A stretch of DNA of 64,000 nucleotides, taken from assembly GCA_963555825.3 (NCBI GenBank), contig CAUVXB020000002.1, positions 2,080,001 through 2,144,000 of the forward strand, in the 5' to 3' direction. Shown one piece after another: positions 15,573 through 20,911 of this stretch; position 1 is the first letter of the stretch, and each line of letters begins with the position of its first letter. Source of the stretch: Alphaproteobacteria bacterium. GTDB lineage: Bacteria > Pseudomonadota > Alphaproteobacteria > JAAXGF01. Made by a program: the position numbers and the translations under genes. The notes below the pieces were generated by a model that had not been told where the DNA came from, ran no database searches, and saw only the letters and a list, made by a program, of their open reading frames with translations.

Positions 15573-16433
15573 ATGGCAGATGCGGGACCGGCACACCTCG
15601 AATGGAAGGACGCCGTTGAACAGCTCGAACGGGCGAACCGGACGATCGAGGAGCAGGCCGAGCATCTCCAGATGGTCATGGACAGCGCGACGATCTCGAT
15701 CTTCTCGCTGAACATCGAGGGCAAGATCACCAGCGCGAACCAGATGACCGCCGAGATGACGGGCCGGCCGGTCGCCGATCTGATCGGTGCGTCCTTCGCC
15801 GGCTTGATCGATAGCGACGACCCGGCCGAGGCCGAGGCGCTGGTCGCCAAGGTGATCGAGGACGGTTATTTCGTGTCCAATCACGAGGCGACAGTCCGCC
15901 GTCCCGACGCCAGCGTACGGATCATCATCCTCAGCTTGCGCGCCCTGACCCGTGACGGTGACATCACCGGCGTCGCGGGCATCGCGAACGACGTGACCGA
16001 ACTGCGCCAGCAGCGCAAGGCGCTGTCGGCCTATCTGCGCATGCTCGAAACGCCCGACCCGACCCTGCTGTCGCTCATGGTGCGCGAATCGCCTGGCTTA
16101 CCCGCCGAGAGCGCGGCCCAGACCGCGGTCGCCGAGGCCGCCGACGACGCCGCGAACCTCGTCCAGATGGACAAGCAGGAACATCGGTCGCATCCGCGCT
16201 TCAAGGTCTACAAGGGCAGCAAGATCTCATTCAACAACGAAACGTCGATCGTCGATTGCGTCGTGCGCAATCTATCGGAGGGCGGCGCGCGGTTGCAGTT
16301 CCCGTCGCACTTCGACTGCCCGCGCTTCGTCGTCCTGCGCATCTCGGGCGGCAATGCCTACAACTGCGAGGTACGCCAGTTCGCCAACAACATCATGGGC
16401 GTCAAATTCCTCGGCGAGCATATTTCGCTTTAA
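15573..16433 (+). CDS. PAS plus PilZ domain protein (putative c-di-GMP receptor)
   Basis: PAS/PAC ending DVTE; C-terminal RSHPR (RxxxR) and NLSEGG ((D/N)xSxxG) PilZ motifs. Confidence 0.82.
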   Translation: MADAGPAHLEWKDAVEQLERANRTIEEQAEHLQMVMDSATISIFSLNIEGKITSANQMTAEMTGRPVADLIGASFAGLIDSDDPAEAEALVAKVIEDGYFVSNHEATVRRPDASVRIIILSLRALTRDGDITGVAGIANDVTELRQQRKALSAYLRMLETPDPTLLSLMVRESPGLPAESAAQTAVAEAADDAANLVQMDKQEHRSHPRFKVYKGSKISFNNETSIVDCVVRNLSEGGARLQFPSHFDCPRFVVLRISGGNAYNCEVRQFANNIMGVKFLGEHISL

Positions 16434-16681
16434 ACTTGGTGGTTCAGTTCCCAGGGGAACGCCCTTGGTGATGCTGGCGACATAGGCGCGATGCCAACAA
16501 AAGCCATGAAGAGTACTTGAGCCCGTTTCATCGTCGGGTTCTTGGCGTCGAGTGTGTAAAGTTTATGTTTGGCGAAATTTCTCGAGTTGTCCGCTTATGA
16601 TGCGGTGGACGGCTCCCACCCGCAGGCATCTAGGTGCCAAAATGGTGGTTTCGATGAACCACAGGGAAATAGGAGCCGTCC

Positions 16682-17704
16682 ATGAACGAAGTTATCACGA
16701 TCGGTGTTGATCTTGCGAAGAACGTATTTCAGGTGCATGGCGTTGACGCCGAGGGAACCGTGGTCGTCCGCCGTCAGTTGAGGCGGCGTCAGGTGCTGGC
16801 CTTCTTCGAGAAACAGCCGCCCTGCCTGGTTGGTATGGAGGCATGTGCGACCGCGCATTACTGGGCGCGGGAGATCGCGGCGCTTGGGCATGAGGTCAAG
16901 CTGATGCCGCCGCGCTATGTGAAGCCCTACGTGAAGCGGAACAAGAATGACGCTGCCGATGCGGAGGCTATTTGCGAGGCCGTCACGCGCCCGACGATGC
17001 GCTTTGTCGCGGTGAAGAGCGTCGAGCAGCAGAGCGTTCTGATGCTGCACCGAACGCGCGAGCTTCTGGTCCGCCAGAGAACCATGCTGGTCAACGCTAC
17101 GCGGGCGCACATGGCGGAGTTCGGGGTGGTGGCGCGAACCGGGTTGCCGCAGGTCAAGGAGCTGCTCGCGGTGATCAGCGATGAGGCGGATGAGCGCATT
17201 CCGCCCCTGGCGCGGACTTGCCTGGAAGGGCTGGCGCGGCAGTTGCTGTCGCTGGAGCGGGAGATCGTCGGCGCTGAGAGGCGTATCCACGCCTGGCACC
17301 GGACGAACGAAGAGAGCCTGCGTCTCGAAACCACACCCGGCATCGGACCGATCACGGCGAGCGCGCTGGCATCTTCGATTGCCAATCCGTCGATCTTCAA
17401 ATCGGGCCGCTCAATGGCCGCTTGGATCGGGCTGGTGCCAAGACAGAACTCGACCGGTGGCAAGGAGCGCATGGGGCGGATCTCCAAGCAGGGCGATCAA
17501 TACCTGCGCTGGCTGCTGGTCGCCGGCGCCATGACGGTCATCCGCCACGCCAAGCGACGCGGCACGACCGATCCATGGCTTGCCAACATCATCGCCGACA
17601 AGCCGACCAAGGTCGCGGCCGTGGCGCTGGCCAACAAGAACGCCCGCATTGCCTGGGCGCTTCTGAGACATGGCGGAACCTATCGCAGGCCCGCGACGGC
17701 CTAG
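16682..17704 (+). CDS. IS110 DEDD recombinase/transposase
   Basis: IGVDLAK, GMEAC, KNDAADAEAI (DEDD), PGIG, GLVPRQNSTGG (catalytic Ser); intact 340 aa. Confidence 0.96.
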   Translation: MNEVITIGVDLAKNVFQVHGVDAEGTVVVRRQLRRRQVLAFFEKQPPCLVGMEACATAHYWAREIAALGHEVKLMPPRYVKPYVKRNKNDAADAEAICEAVTRPTMRFVAVKSVEQQSVLMLHRTRELLVRQRTMLVNATRAHMAEFGVVARTGLPQVKELLAVISDEADERIPPLARTCLEGLARQLLSLEREIVGAERRIHAWHRTNEESLRLETTPGIGPITASALASSIANPSIFKSGRSMAAWIGLVPRQNSTGGKERMGRISKQGDQYLRWLLVAGAMTVIRHAKRRGTTDPWLANIIADKPTKVAAVALANKNARIAWALLRHGGTYRRPATA

Positions 17705-17719
17705 GCCGACGAAAACAAG

Positions 17720-17940
17720 GCGTTCACGAGTTTGGCGGAGTGTAAGTGACGTAATGCAAAATCGGTCGAACCGAGGATCGGGAAAACCCGCTATAGCCAC
17801 GGCGCCTCGAGCGCGTGCTTATGACTGGGACCCGACCCCGCGGATCGCATTAGGGCCAGCGGCCATGTACGCCGCACCAAAAGGCCGGACACATGGCAGC
17901 ACCCGACCAGCTTGCATCAACGTCACAAAATCTCTTGCCA
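17720..17940 (+). ncRNA. Predicted bridge RNA / seekRNA locus (ends approximate)
   Basis: Guide-like matches to the target (AGCCA 17795, GCTTATG 17817) and donor junction (CGCATTA 17846, ACACATG 17889), each pair flanking a hairpin. Confidence 0.8.
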
Positions 17941-17959
17941 ACAGGGAGCCGTCCACACA

Positions 17960-19654
17960 TGAGACATGGCGGAACCTATCGCAGGCCCGCGACGGCCTAG
18001 GCCGACGAAAACAAGGCGTTCACGAGTTTGGCGGAGTGTAAGTGACGTAATGCAAAATCGGTCGAACCGAGGATCGGGAAAACCCGCTATAGCCACGGCG
18101 CCTCGAGCGCGTGCTTATGACTGGGACCCGACCCCGCGGATCGCATTAGGGCCAGCGGCCATGTACGCCGCACCAAAAGGCCGGACACATGGCAGCACCC
18201 GACCAGCTTGCATCAACGTCACAAAATCTCTTGCCAACAGGGGGCCGTCCACACATGAGACATGGCGGAACCTATCGCAGGCCCGCGTCGGCCTAGGCCG
18301 ACGAAAACAAGGCGTTCACGAGTTTGGCGGAGTGTAAGTGACGTAATGCAAAATCGGTCGAACCGAGGATCGGGAAAACCCGCTATAGCCACGGCGCCTC
18401 GAGCGCGTGCTTATGACTGGGACCCGACCCCGCGGATCGCATTAGGGCCAGCGGCCATGTACGCCGCACCAAAAGGCCGGACACATGGCAGCACCCGACC
18501 AGCTTGCATCAACGTCACAAAATCTCTTGCCAACAGGGAGCCGTCCACACATGAGACATGGACCCGACCTATCGCAGGCCCGCGACGGCCTAGGCCGACG
18601 AAAACAAGGCGATCACGAGTTTGGCGGAGTGCATTAGGGCCAGCGGCCATGTACGCCGCACCAATCAAGGCCGGAACATGGCAGCACCCGACCATGTACG
18701 CTTGCATCAAGGCGTCACGAGCTTGGCGGAATCTCTTGCCAACAGGGAGCCGTCCACACATGACTGGGACCCGACCCCGCGGATCGCATTAGGGCCAGCG
18801 GCCATGTACGCCGCACCAAAAGGCCGGACACATGGCAGCACCCGACCAGCTTGCATCAACGTCACAAAATCTCTTGCCAACAGGGAGCCGTCCACACATG
18901 ACTGGGACCCGACCCCGCGGATCGCATTAGGGCCAGCGGCCATGTACGCCGCACCAAAAGGCCGGACACATGGCAGCACCCGACCAGCTTGCATCAACGT
19001 CACAAAATCTCTTGCCAACAGGGAGCCGTCCACACATGGGCCAACAGGGAGCCGTCCACACATGACTGGGACCCGACCCCGCGATCGCATTAGGGCCAGC
19101 GGCCATGTACGCCGCACCAAAAGGCCGGACACATGTACGCCGCACCAAAAGGCCGGACACATGGCAGCACCCGACCAGCTTGCATCAACGTCACAAAATC
19201 TCTTGCCAACAGGGAGCCGTCCACACATGCCAACAGGGAGCCGTCCACACATGACTGGGACCCGACCCCGCGGATCGCATTAGGGCCAGCGGCCATGTAC
19301 GCCGCACCAAAAGGCCGGACACATGGCAGCACCCGACCAGCTTGCATCAACGTCACAAAATCTCTTGCCAACAGGGAGCCGTCCACACATGCCAACAGGG
19401 AGCCGTGCCAACAGGGAGCCGTCCACACATGCCAACAGGGAGCCGTCCACACATGTACAGGGAGCCGTCCACACATGCCAAAGGGAGCCGGACACATGCC
19501 AACAGGGACCCGTCCGCATGCAACAGGGACGTCCACCATGCCAAAGGGATCCACACATGCCAACAGGGAGCCGTCCACACATGCCACACATGGGAGCCCC
19601 GACCAGCTTGCATCAACGTCACATCACTTGCCAACAGGGAGCCGTCCACACATG
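17960..19654 (+). repeat. Tandem array of IS110 right-end copies (296, 138 and 24 bp units plus mosaic copies)
   Basis: Right-end TG cores at 17960, 18256, 18552, 18761, 18899, 19037, 19063, 19228, 19252, 19390, 19430, 19454 and 19653. Confidence 0.95.
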
Positions 19655-19792
19655 GCTGAGGCGGCTGGGAACGGACATTGGGCGACCGACGCCGCCAGGT
19701 CCGCTTTCCGCTCGTAAGCCGATTCGATTCCCTTGGGAGTCCGGGCGTGAGCCACGGGTCGGCTCGGGTCGGCAAGCCGGGTTGACTTGAAC

Positions 19793-20911
19793 CTAATTCT
19801 CAAGGGTTTGGAGCACGAGGTTCTTGAAGTGGGAGAGCGCGTGCTCGCTCCACGCGCCGCGCTCGGGGTCGAGCATGATGTAGCTTCGCTCGAAGCTTCG
19901 AGACCGCTGGCCGCGCTGAATGCCTTCCGCGACCCCTACATCCTCGGCATTGACGACTTCGGCGGCAAAATTGATCTGTCGCCACTGCTCGTCGGTCGGC
20001 TCGGTATAGGGCAGATAGAAGTCGTACGTCTCGCGGCTGCGCTCGGGGCCGTCCGGCATGATGTGCAGCACCCTGAAGCCGCCGCCCGGCATCGACATCG
20101 GGCACAGGTTCGGCCACAGCCACCAGTTGCGATGCTGCGGGTAGCTTGCGCGGTCGATTTCGAAGCCGCCCGCCAAGCCAGGCCGGGCGTCGCTCGAGTG
20201 GCTCAGGTACTTGCCATGGGCAACGACCCGGTAGCTTTCATCGAGGTTGCTCGCCAGCACGGGGTGAATGACCGGCGTGTGATAATTCTCGTTGTAGTTG
20301 TCGACCAGATTCTTCCAGTTGGATTCGATGACAAACGCCTTGCGGTGAACCAATGTCAGTTCGTCAATCGCCGGCTCGTAGTCGCACATTTCTTGTTCCA
20401 GCCCGGGCATTTGTTCCGAAAGCGCGGCGGCATCGGGATCGAGATTTACGAAGACGAAACCGCAGAAAATCTCGACGCGTACCGGGTTCAGGCAGAACTT
20501 CCCGCTGTCGAATCCCGGCACGTCCGTACTCTTGCGCGCGAACCGCAATGTCCCGTCGGTGTTGTACGTCCACGCATGGTAAGGACAGGTGATGACATCG
20601 ACATGACCACTGCCTTCCAGCAGCCAATGGCCGCGGTGACGGCAGACGTTGTAGAAGGCCTTAAGCCGGCCGTCCTGGTCGCGAATGATGATGATGCTCT
20701 CATCGCCGACCGTGCAGGTTACGAAAGCGCCGGGTTTGCGAAACTGCGAGCGATGGCCAGCGAAATTCCAACACCGATAGAAGATGCGTTCATGCTCGCG
20801 CGCCAGGATTTCAGGGTCCGTGTAGTAGTGTGCGGGAAGCGAGTAACTGTCGTCACGTAGCCGGGCGTCGCCGTCATCGGACATGCTTCGAATTTTCGAG
20901 GTGTCTTTCAT
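19793..20911 (-). CDS. Rieske non-heme iron oxygenase alpha subunit (choline/carnitine monooxygenase-like)
   Basis: NVCRHRG..CPYHAW Rieske motif; NWK..DNYNENYH..IH and ED iron site. Confidence 0.9.
   Translation of the reverse strand: MKDTSKIRSMSDDGDARLRDDSYSLPAHYYTDPEILAREHERIFYRCWNFAGHRSQFRKPGAFVTCTVGDESIIIIRDQDGRLKAFYNVCRHRGHWLLEGSGHVDVITCPYHAWTYNTDGTLRFARKSTDVPGFDSGKFCLNPVRVEIFCGFVFVNLDPDAAALSEQMPGLEQEMCDYEPAIDELTLVHRKAFVIESNWKNLVDNYNENYHTPVIHPVLASNLDESYRVVAHGKYLSHSSDARPGLAGGFEIDRASYPQHRNWWLWPNLCPMSMPGGGFRVLHIMPDGPERSRETYDFYLPYTEPTDEQWRQINFAAEVVNAEDVGVAEGIQRGQRSRSFERSYIMLDPERGAWSEHALSHFKNLVLQTLEN

Follow-up and report, generated by a model that had tools for sequence, protein, structure and literature searches.

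A predicted bridge RNA in the right end of an alphaproteobacterial IS1111-group element, and the array of partial right ends beside it

The window analyzed here, a stretch of 64,000 nucleotides (positions 2,080,001 to 2,144,000 of contig CAUVXB020000002.1, assembly GCA_963555825.3, Alphaproteobacteria bacterium), carries an insertion element whose right non-coding end had been proposed, in a preliminary description, to encode a bridge RNA with readable target and donor guides. The IS1111-group element spans positions 16600 to 17961 (1362 bp), opens with ATGCGGTGGAC at 16600, and first closes with the right end ..GTCCACACATG at 17961. Five 100% identical copies and one 97% copy are present in the genome (G000; 2 contigs, 6.04 Mb), the protein being identical in the five. 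The features of the locus, in window positions, are as follows.

16589 to 16599, plus strand: left target half and left TG core (GTCCGCTTA-TG; quoted as the string GTCCGCTTATG); the left flanks of 5/5 identical copies end in TG.
16600 to 16681, plus strand: left end, non-coding, 82 nt, with the sub-terminal inverted repeat (IR) GTGGACGGCTCCC at 16605-16617; this start is common to the five copies.
16682 to 17704, plus strand: transposase/recombinase gene, 340 aa, with the domains DEDD_Tnp_IS110 and Transposase_20 and the motif GLVPRQNSTG.
17762 to 17775, plus strand: small 5' hairpin TCGGT-CGA-ACCGA before the bridge RNA core, read from the alignment and outside the counted structure.
17776 to 17838, plus strand: target-binding module, with helices GATCGG/CCGACCC and CCC/GGG and hairpin GCGC-ctcga-GCGC round an internal loop.
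17790 to 17801, plus strand: target loop 5' strand GCTATAGCCACG, whose TAGCCA forms 5 Watson-Crick pairs and 1 G-U with TG-GCTG, the top strand of the right target.
17815 to 17826, plus strand: target loop 3' strand GTGCTTATGACT, in which GCTTATG is identical to left target plus core.
17840 to 17900, plus strand: donor-binding module, with a 2-bp closing helix GC/GC, helix GGCC/GGCC, and hairpin GCGGC-catgtac-GCCGC round an internal loop.
17842 to 17853, plus strand: donor loop 5' strand GGATCGCATTAG, pairing with left-end TG-ATGCGGT (9 pairs including 2 G-U).
17887 to 17898, plus strand: donor loop 3' strand GGACACATGGCA, in which ACACATG is identical to right end plus core.
17935 to 17940, plus strand: TTGCCA, candidate -35 of a predicted promoter complete only in the circle junction (17-nt spacer, CATGAT across the joint).
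17944 to 17961, plus strand: right sub-terminal IR GGGAGCCGTCCAC (17944-17956), terminal ACA, and TG core.
17962 to 19654, plus strand: array of partial right-end copies, every unit ending ..CCACACATG.
19655 to 19668, plus strand: right target half GCTGAGGCGGCTGG.

In Pfam, the 340-aa protein matched PF01548 with 60.8 bits (cut-off 29; E 1.7e-16) and PF02371 with 90.7 bits (cut-off 21.3; E 7.9e-26). In an alignment with the ISCro4 transposase, whose structure is solved, the TG of GLVPRQNSTG stands opposite SG, and IS621 was the other weak match, with its C-terminal domain aligned (E 4.1e-07). Transposases of the IS1111 group are described as 330-350 aa long with a GL-P----S(t)G motif (Siddiquee et al. 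2024, PMC11187229), its sub-terminal IRs as 7-17 bp long (Durrant et al. 2024, PMC11208160), and its longer non-coding region as lying downstream of the transposase gene (PMC11187229; PMC11208160). In the window element, GTGGACGGCTCCC is the reverse complement of 17944-17956, giving 13-bp repeats set 5 nt inward of each end, and 82 non-coding nt upstream of the gene compare with 257 nt downstream. Since domains, motif, protein length, IRs, and the length of the right non-coding end match the published criteria, 16600-17961 is, judged from sequence, an intact IS1111-group member of the IS110 family. TG stands on both sides of 5/5 identical copies, and the direct repeat is no longer than this core. 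The element had been called complete and apparently intact, which fits the span 16600-17961; however, 1693 right-end-derived bases (17962-19654) lie between 17961 and the right flank, so the window copy cannot count as a clean insertion of 1362 bp. The exact protein was found on 42 contigs in a cluster look-up, where its sole name was "transposase", and a search of a plasmid collection returned short 79-84% matches only and no named element.

The strings on which the guides had been proposed were all read back from the sequence: AGCCA at 17795-17799, GCTTATG at 17817-17823, CGCATTA at 17846-17852, ACACATG at 17889-17895, and GCTGAGG from 19655, along with the hairpins CACGGCGC-ctcga-GCGCGTG at 17798-17817 and GCGGC-catgtac-GCCGC at 17859-17875. 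To estimate how often they occur by chance, the 244-nt non-coding end was shuffled 20,000 times with its dinucleotides preserved. AGCCA is weak by itself (6211 shuffles), and GCTTATG, CGCAT[T/C]A, and ACACATG were found in 95, 923, and 397 shuffles, respectively. All four segments in the observed order were found in 0/20,000; the four-segment set is not due to chance.

For a comparative view of the structure, 80 related loci (55-84% protein identity) were fetched in addition to the sibling elements of the same genome; both ends were recognized by regular expression in 52 elements, and 47 distinct right ends were aligned. The RNAalifold consensus of these right ends held six helices. In the named structure of 24 pairs, 96.8% of cells were paired, versus 27-37% when partners were slid by 1-3 columns, and compensatory changes on both sides were seen in 15 of the 24 pairs; 0/500 shuffles reached any of these measures. 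The helices of the donor module, too, are kept with compensatory changes. In the consensus mapped to the window, none of the four segments is paired, and they lie in two internal loops, as had been predicted, with the target loop formed by 17790-17801 and 17815-17826 and the donor loop by 17842-17853 and 17887-17898.

We then asked how well each loop strand fits the flanks and ends of its own element. The measure was the longest core-anchored run of pairs between a loop strand and its own flank or end, compared with the flanks of other elements, and its significance was judged by 2000 permutations of the guide-flank match that ignored the relatedness of the elements. Tested were 46 of the 52 elements; dropped were L036 (nested), L068 (donor module lost), L080 (duplicated right end), and L071, L089, and L098 (flank interrupted by a contig end). 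With Watson-Crick pairs, the target 5' strand scored 6.50 for own and 2.90 for other partners, the target 3' strand 4.70 and 2.56, and the donor 3' strand 6.37 and 4.60 (0/2000 permutations for each). For the donor 5' strand, the corresponding values with G-U allowed were 6.39 and 5.54 (0/2000). At least 6 Watson-Crick pairs on the right target were present in 37/46 elements. Among 19 right-flank classes (core plus four flank letters), an own element has an exact 6-mer complement in 12, and guide matches recur across many unrelated targets (TGACCC, TGGCAC, TGGCGC, TGAAAC, TGGACC, TGACAG, and others).

The guides also vary with the core. In sibling elements of type B, with core TA, the strands end ..GGCTA, ..GTTTA, and ..ACACATA; L040, L041, and L044, whose right-end core is CG, have ..GGCCG; and siblings of type C (core AG or GG) have ..ACACAAG and a 10-nt match to their own right target. 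The right end is ACACATG in 31/46 elements, and because donor ends vary so little, the co-variation test is less powerful there. The donor 3' strand nevertheless follows right-end variants, with own matches for ACAAATG (1/1), ACAGATG (1/1), ACGCATG (1/1), ACATATG (1/2), ACACATA (3/3), and ACACAAG (2/2), the exceptions being CG, GG, and one TG case. In the proposed two-loop layout, the 5' strand complements core and right half, and the 3' strand repeats left half and core; consensus fold, flank co-variation, and IS1111 strand order all agree with it.

Within G000, the five identical copies sit in the following sites.

Copy in the window: GTCCGCTTA-TG-GCTGAGG
Copy C1:2235902: GTCCGCTAG-TG-GCTGAGG
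Copy C1:171413: GCCCATGTA-TG-GCAATAG
Copy C2:524031: TACCGCTAG-TG-GCTATGT
Copy C2:1405234: GTCTGCTCA-TG-TTGGCTC

The ideal right side for the guide (TGGCTATAG) is best met at C2:524031, which is also the clean copy without an array (G000:C2:524031-525392). Contigs from other samples add the right flanks GCTAATTTCG (run X6) and GCTATGTGTGGAC (run X13), the latter equal to the flank of the C2:524031 copy. With up to 3 mismatches, the motif GAGGCTGTTGAAAAAGTC has at least 28 copies in the genome, often in inverted pairs about 160 bp apart and preceded by ..GTCnGnTnn-T[G/A]-GC[T/C]. These sites are uninterrupted paralogous targets, and type A elements, that of the window among them (TG-GCT), and type B elements (TA-GCC) each aim at their own variant of one and the same place. 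Going by these repeats, what is targeted in nature is either end of a short inverted-repeat element scattered through the genome. The repeat family is about 160-200 bp long with inverted ends ..GC[T/C]GAGGCTGTTGAAAAAGTC.. (e.g., C2:272839/272999, 2407732/2407891, and 3447644/3447803), and its outer edges were seen to be where element types A, B, and C preferentially insert.

Taken together, these results suggested that 16600-17961 is very probably an IS1111-group element whose right end encodes a predicted bridge (seek) RNA reading its own target and ends. By analogy with studied family members, the right non-coding region would be made into an RNA of about 125-175 nt. Right of the insertion point, the 5' strand of its target loop would pair with TG-GCT.. 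(top strand); left of it, the 3' strand, GCUUAUG, being identical to left target plus core, would pair with the bottom strand of GCTTA-TG. In the donor loop, the partner of the 5' strand would be left-end TG-ATGCGGU, G-U pairs included, and that of the 3' strand ACACAUG would be the bottom strand of right-end ACACA-TG. Strand exchange by the recombinase at the TG core common to both partners would then link the target with the joined ends of an excised copy, whose predicted circle junction is ..GTCCACACA-TG-ATGCGGTGGAC...

Several observations weigh against this reading. The minimum-energy fold of the single sequence pairs UAUAG with CUUAU, closing part of the target loop, so that this fold is ambiguous on the loop, and the folding z-score is only -2.5 for the 257-nt end and -0.14 for the 156-nt core. 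No Rfam family matched 16000-20200 at permissive thresholds, and the RNA runs found contained at most 0.12 of the query words. The neglect of relatedness in the permutations counts here as well, as does the donor 5' strand, which with Watson-Crick pairs only scored 2.93 for own versus 2.85 for other partners (608/2000 permutations); the pairing of CGCATTA with TG-ATGCG put forward in the preliminary description holds with G-U, while a Watson-Crick-only signal is absent. The U opposite the core G in this strand (GCAUUA) is, however, common to most TG-core relatives and is therefore a family trait and not a defect. The window's own flank class, TGGCTG, is without an exact 6-mer match, having 5 Watson-Crick pairs and one G-U. 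Other insertion sites had been expected to match GCTTA-TG-GCT; among the five identical copies the core TG is present in 5/5, but the right-side GCT in 3/5 and the left-side GCT (-7 to -5) in 4/5, and the site TG-TTGGCTC meets the right guide at the core only. Such partial fits are as expected if mismatches are tolerated. Finally, a search of 40 relatives, none of the same genus, with the left flank 16150-16599 did not uncover an orthologous empty site; it returned the own genome only and one 35-nt chance-level match. The strings of the empty target, GTCCGCTTATG followed by GCTGAGG, are present, but the empty target itself is an inference, the uninterrupted repeats of this family in the genome being paralogous.

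It could be argued that the four segments are DNA-level repeats of the ends and the target, e.g., extra protein-binding sites or relics of old end duplications, and not RNA guides. Letter for letter, one 3' strand indeed repeats the left target with the core and the other the right end with the core, and the element does duplicate its own right end at the DNA level. The two 5' strands, in contrast, are reverse complements of their partners and no copies, and the donor 5' strand fits only via G-U, which is real in RNA-DNA pairing and meaningless for a DNA repeat. The structure in whose loops the segments lie moreover shows compensatory changes in 15/24 pairs, and homologous elements have been shown experimentally to use such an RNA. 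We consider DNA-level repeats very improbable as an explanation. Somewhat less remote, though still unlikely, is that the target module alone works as the guide, as a short seekRNA of about 80-95 nt, with the protein reading the ends via the 13-bp IRs and the donor matches being secondary. A predominant RNA of 82-96 nt with two target matches has been described, with stress on the sub-terminal IRs (Siddiquee et al., PMC11187229), and the low variability of the donor ends noted above would suit this arrangement. Against it stand the donor 3' strand, with its response to right-end variants, the conserved donor helices with their compensatory changes, and the prediction of full bridge RNAs in 93.0% of IS1111 elements (Durrant et al., PMC11208160). 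A bridge RNA with both modules thus remains our preferred reading.

The expression of such an RNA may depend on the excised form. A sigma-70-like site was not found in the linear element, and the joined ends would build a promoter, TTGCCA-17 nt-CATGAT, with 9/12 matches by the criteria of the promoter scan. The stretch CTTGCCAA is conserved among relatives. For ISEc11, a promoter present at the junction only has been described (Siddiquee et al., PMC11187229).

Features of the window element resemble those described for the IS1111 seekRNA elements ISEc11, ISPa11, ISKpn4, and ISPst6 (PMC11187229), which have DEDD transposases of 330-350 aa with GL-P----S/TG, sub-terminal IRs, and a long non-coding region downstream of the gene, lie in targets within repeated palindromic elements, and have the match complementary to the top strand 5' of the match complementary to the bottom strand. 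This likeness comes from features and not from sequence comparison, and the window element differs from the four in its TG core and its own target, ideally GCTTA-TG-GCTAT; its host has sponge-associated labels in run records.

IS621 has the core CT. The window element differs from it in its TG core, in having the RNA in the right end and not the left, in its reversed strand order, and in its long sub-terminal repeats. Shared with IS621, as described (PMC11208160; structures 8wt6 and others), are the RuvC-like and Tnp domains and the two internal loops that read both halves of target and donor round a common 2-nt core.

The right-end array comprises two 296-bp units, each with a whole bridge RNA gene, one scrambled unit, units of 138 bp with the donor module only, and units of 24-26 bp, some of them degenerate; Tandem Repeats Finder gave units of 296, 138, and 24-28 bp. 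Arrays are present at 4/5 identical copies, the three arrays outside the window being G000:C1:169596-170053, C1:2233729-2234568, and C2:1402803-1403874. In all four arrayed copies, the units terminate at the exact element terminus and are joined at TG. We counted 31 right-end motifs, 17 of them in the window copy: 5 abut the flank, 16 continue into uniquely mapped element sequence in 6 classes, and 10 do not map, 3 of which form a seventh class (CCAACAG). In 7/7 junction classes the joined sequence natively follows TG, a dinucleotide found at 6.8% of positions. Three of the seven classes lie at sites with a 4-5/5 match to the left-target or left-donor arm, and four share only TG. Arm-like sites number 7 among the 93 internal TG sites (hypergeometric P 0.008 for 3/7 classes). 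Two of the junction sites are perfect, at element positions 1225 and 1297, and coincide with the DNA that encodes the two 3' loop strands; the third arm-like junction lies at a 4/5 left-target look-alike at element position 1067.

Replication slippage as the origin of the array is unlikely, given that units end exactly at the terminus and that 4/7 junction classes share only TG. Beside IS110 transposases, tandem non-coding repeat units that retain left-donor matches at their boundaries have been reported (n = 468; bioRxiv 10.64898/2026.08.14.744561), recombination at half-matches has been proposed (bioRxiv 10.64898/2026.08.31.748434), and direct transfer of a right-end junction was described in a 2025 preprint. 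With these preprints and the partial circles of ISPpu9 describing such arrays or recombination, the array is an instance of a described kind. Like the expanded IS110 loci (bioRxiv 10.64898/2026.08.14.744561), the array 17962-19654 and those at the three other copies have tandem units beside the transposase, each ending in left-donor arm plus core, the "LD-only" pattern. The available text of that preprint, however, names IS1111 0 times and reports no similarity at the unmatched boundary, whereas 3/7 junction classes here resemble the left-target or left-donor arm. ISPpu9 minicircles (Pares-Guillen et al. 2025, PMC12288879) similarly show alternative end-like boxes recombined at a shared dinucleotide and partial modules with the downstream small-RNA gene only. 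In contrast to the window element, ISPpu9 has AG and repeated A/B boxes, and its Ssr9 RNA is described as dispensable for transposition (PMC12288879); the partial units of the window element, in turn, stay tandem at its right end.

A tentative idea, to which we give rather less than even weight, is that the bridge RNA gene may act as a hot spot at which the element's recombinase works, the right end recombining with a half-match in the element's own guide DNA and so seeding the arrays. The 3' loop strands have to reproduce the core with the left target in one case and with the right end in the other, so that the DNA encoding them amounts to perfect half-sites within the element. If this sequence-based idea is true, hot-spot arrays would multiply bridge RNA genes and donor modules, the guide layout would carry an inherent cost of self-targeting, and the arrays would give a natural read-out of off-target rules. 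A right-end duplication with a junction of the kind seen in G000 was noted at L080:2810-2908, from an unrelated metagenome-assembled alphaproteobacterium, where 98 bp of the right end are joined at CATG of the donor hairpin loop.

Parts of the window array are irregular: the unit at 18554-18762 is pieced together from fragments of the right end, and small deletions are present in the last 24-nt units (19391-19600). These patchwork and degenerate parts could reflect population heterogeneity or an error of the assembly consensus. We compared 18520-18850 with Logan contigs of runs X1, X5, X6, and X13, from 4 studies. Positions 18640-18723, within the scrambled unit, were covered by contigs of none of the four runs, and an X13 contig joins 18631 to 18760 through 78 different letters, which is the native arrangement. 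These runs do not confirm the scrambled unit, which may exist in the assembled sample only or stem from a consensus error. In run X5, the right end is joined to AGACATGG in two contigs of 46 and 45 nt, whose loose ends read CGGAACCT, as at 17961 and 18257; with about 30 and 16 letters per side, below the 31+31 bridging rule, they are only a hint of array junctions. In 4/4 runs, contigs were deeper over the right-end part of the non-coding region than over its 5' part; as contig depth cannot rank parts of a gene, the difference was not used as evidence.

Apart from the right-end arrays and the hint of its own guide DNA acting as a half-site, the element is ordinary for its family and leaves the current picture of IS110/IS1111 unchanged. 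It adds a well-documented natural IS1111-type predicted bridge recombinase with a TG core, its four guides and scaffold defined comparatively. As Rfam is without a family for this RNA, a covariance model could be started from the 47 aligned right ends. The right-end arrays, for their part, are natural off-target junctions that fit the half-match model of the 2026 preprints. That one genome holds siblings with TG, TA, and AG/GG cores, the TG and TA types aiming at two variants of one repeat, makes the set useful for studying the divergence of guides and cores.

These siblings (G000:C2:1013042-1018393, C2:2558326-2559710, and others, L008-L020) share 79% protein identity with the window element in type B and 57% in type C, which has five copies that differ from each other in their right-end core. 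In three type B copies (G000:C2:526839-527855, 2451892-2452908, and 1067093-1068109), another mobile element is inserted a few bases past the transposase stop (..GACGCCT joined to TATACCAGTGAGC..), and the gene is thereby parted from the bridge RNA region. The 97% copy (G000:C2:1505025-1506305) sits in CATCTTG-TG-ACCCAGG, and its first ~85 nt are unlike type A. It was considered as a counter-example to the guides and set aside, since its flanks fit the guides of the sibling C2:2409488-2410504 (TTTGGGTCA and CCTTGTG), and from this fit the copy probably arose by recombination of two element types. The 3' part (16150-16423) of the gene lying left of the window element has a 99% identical copy on the other replicon, at G000:C1:1490233-1490506.

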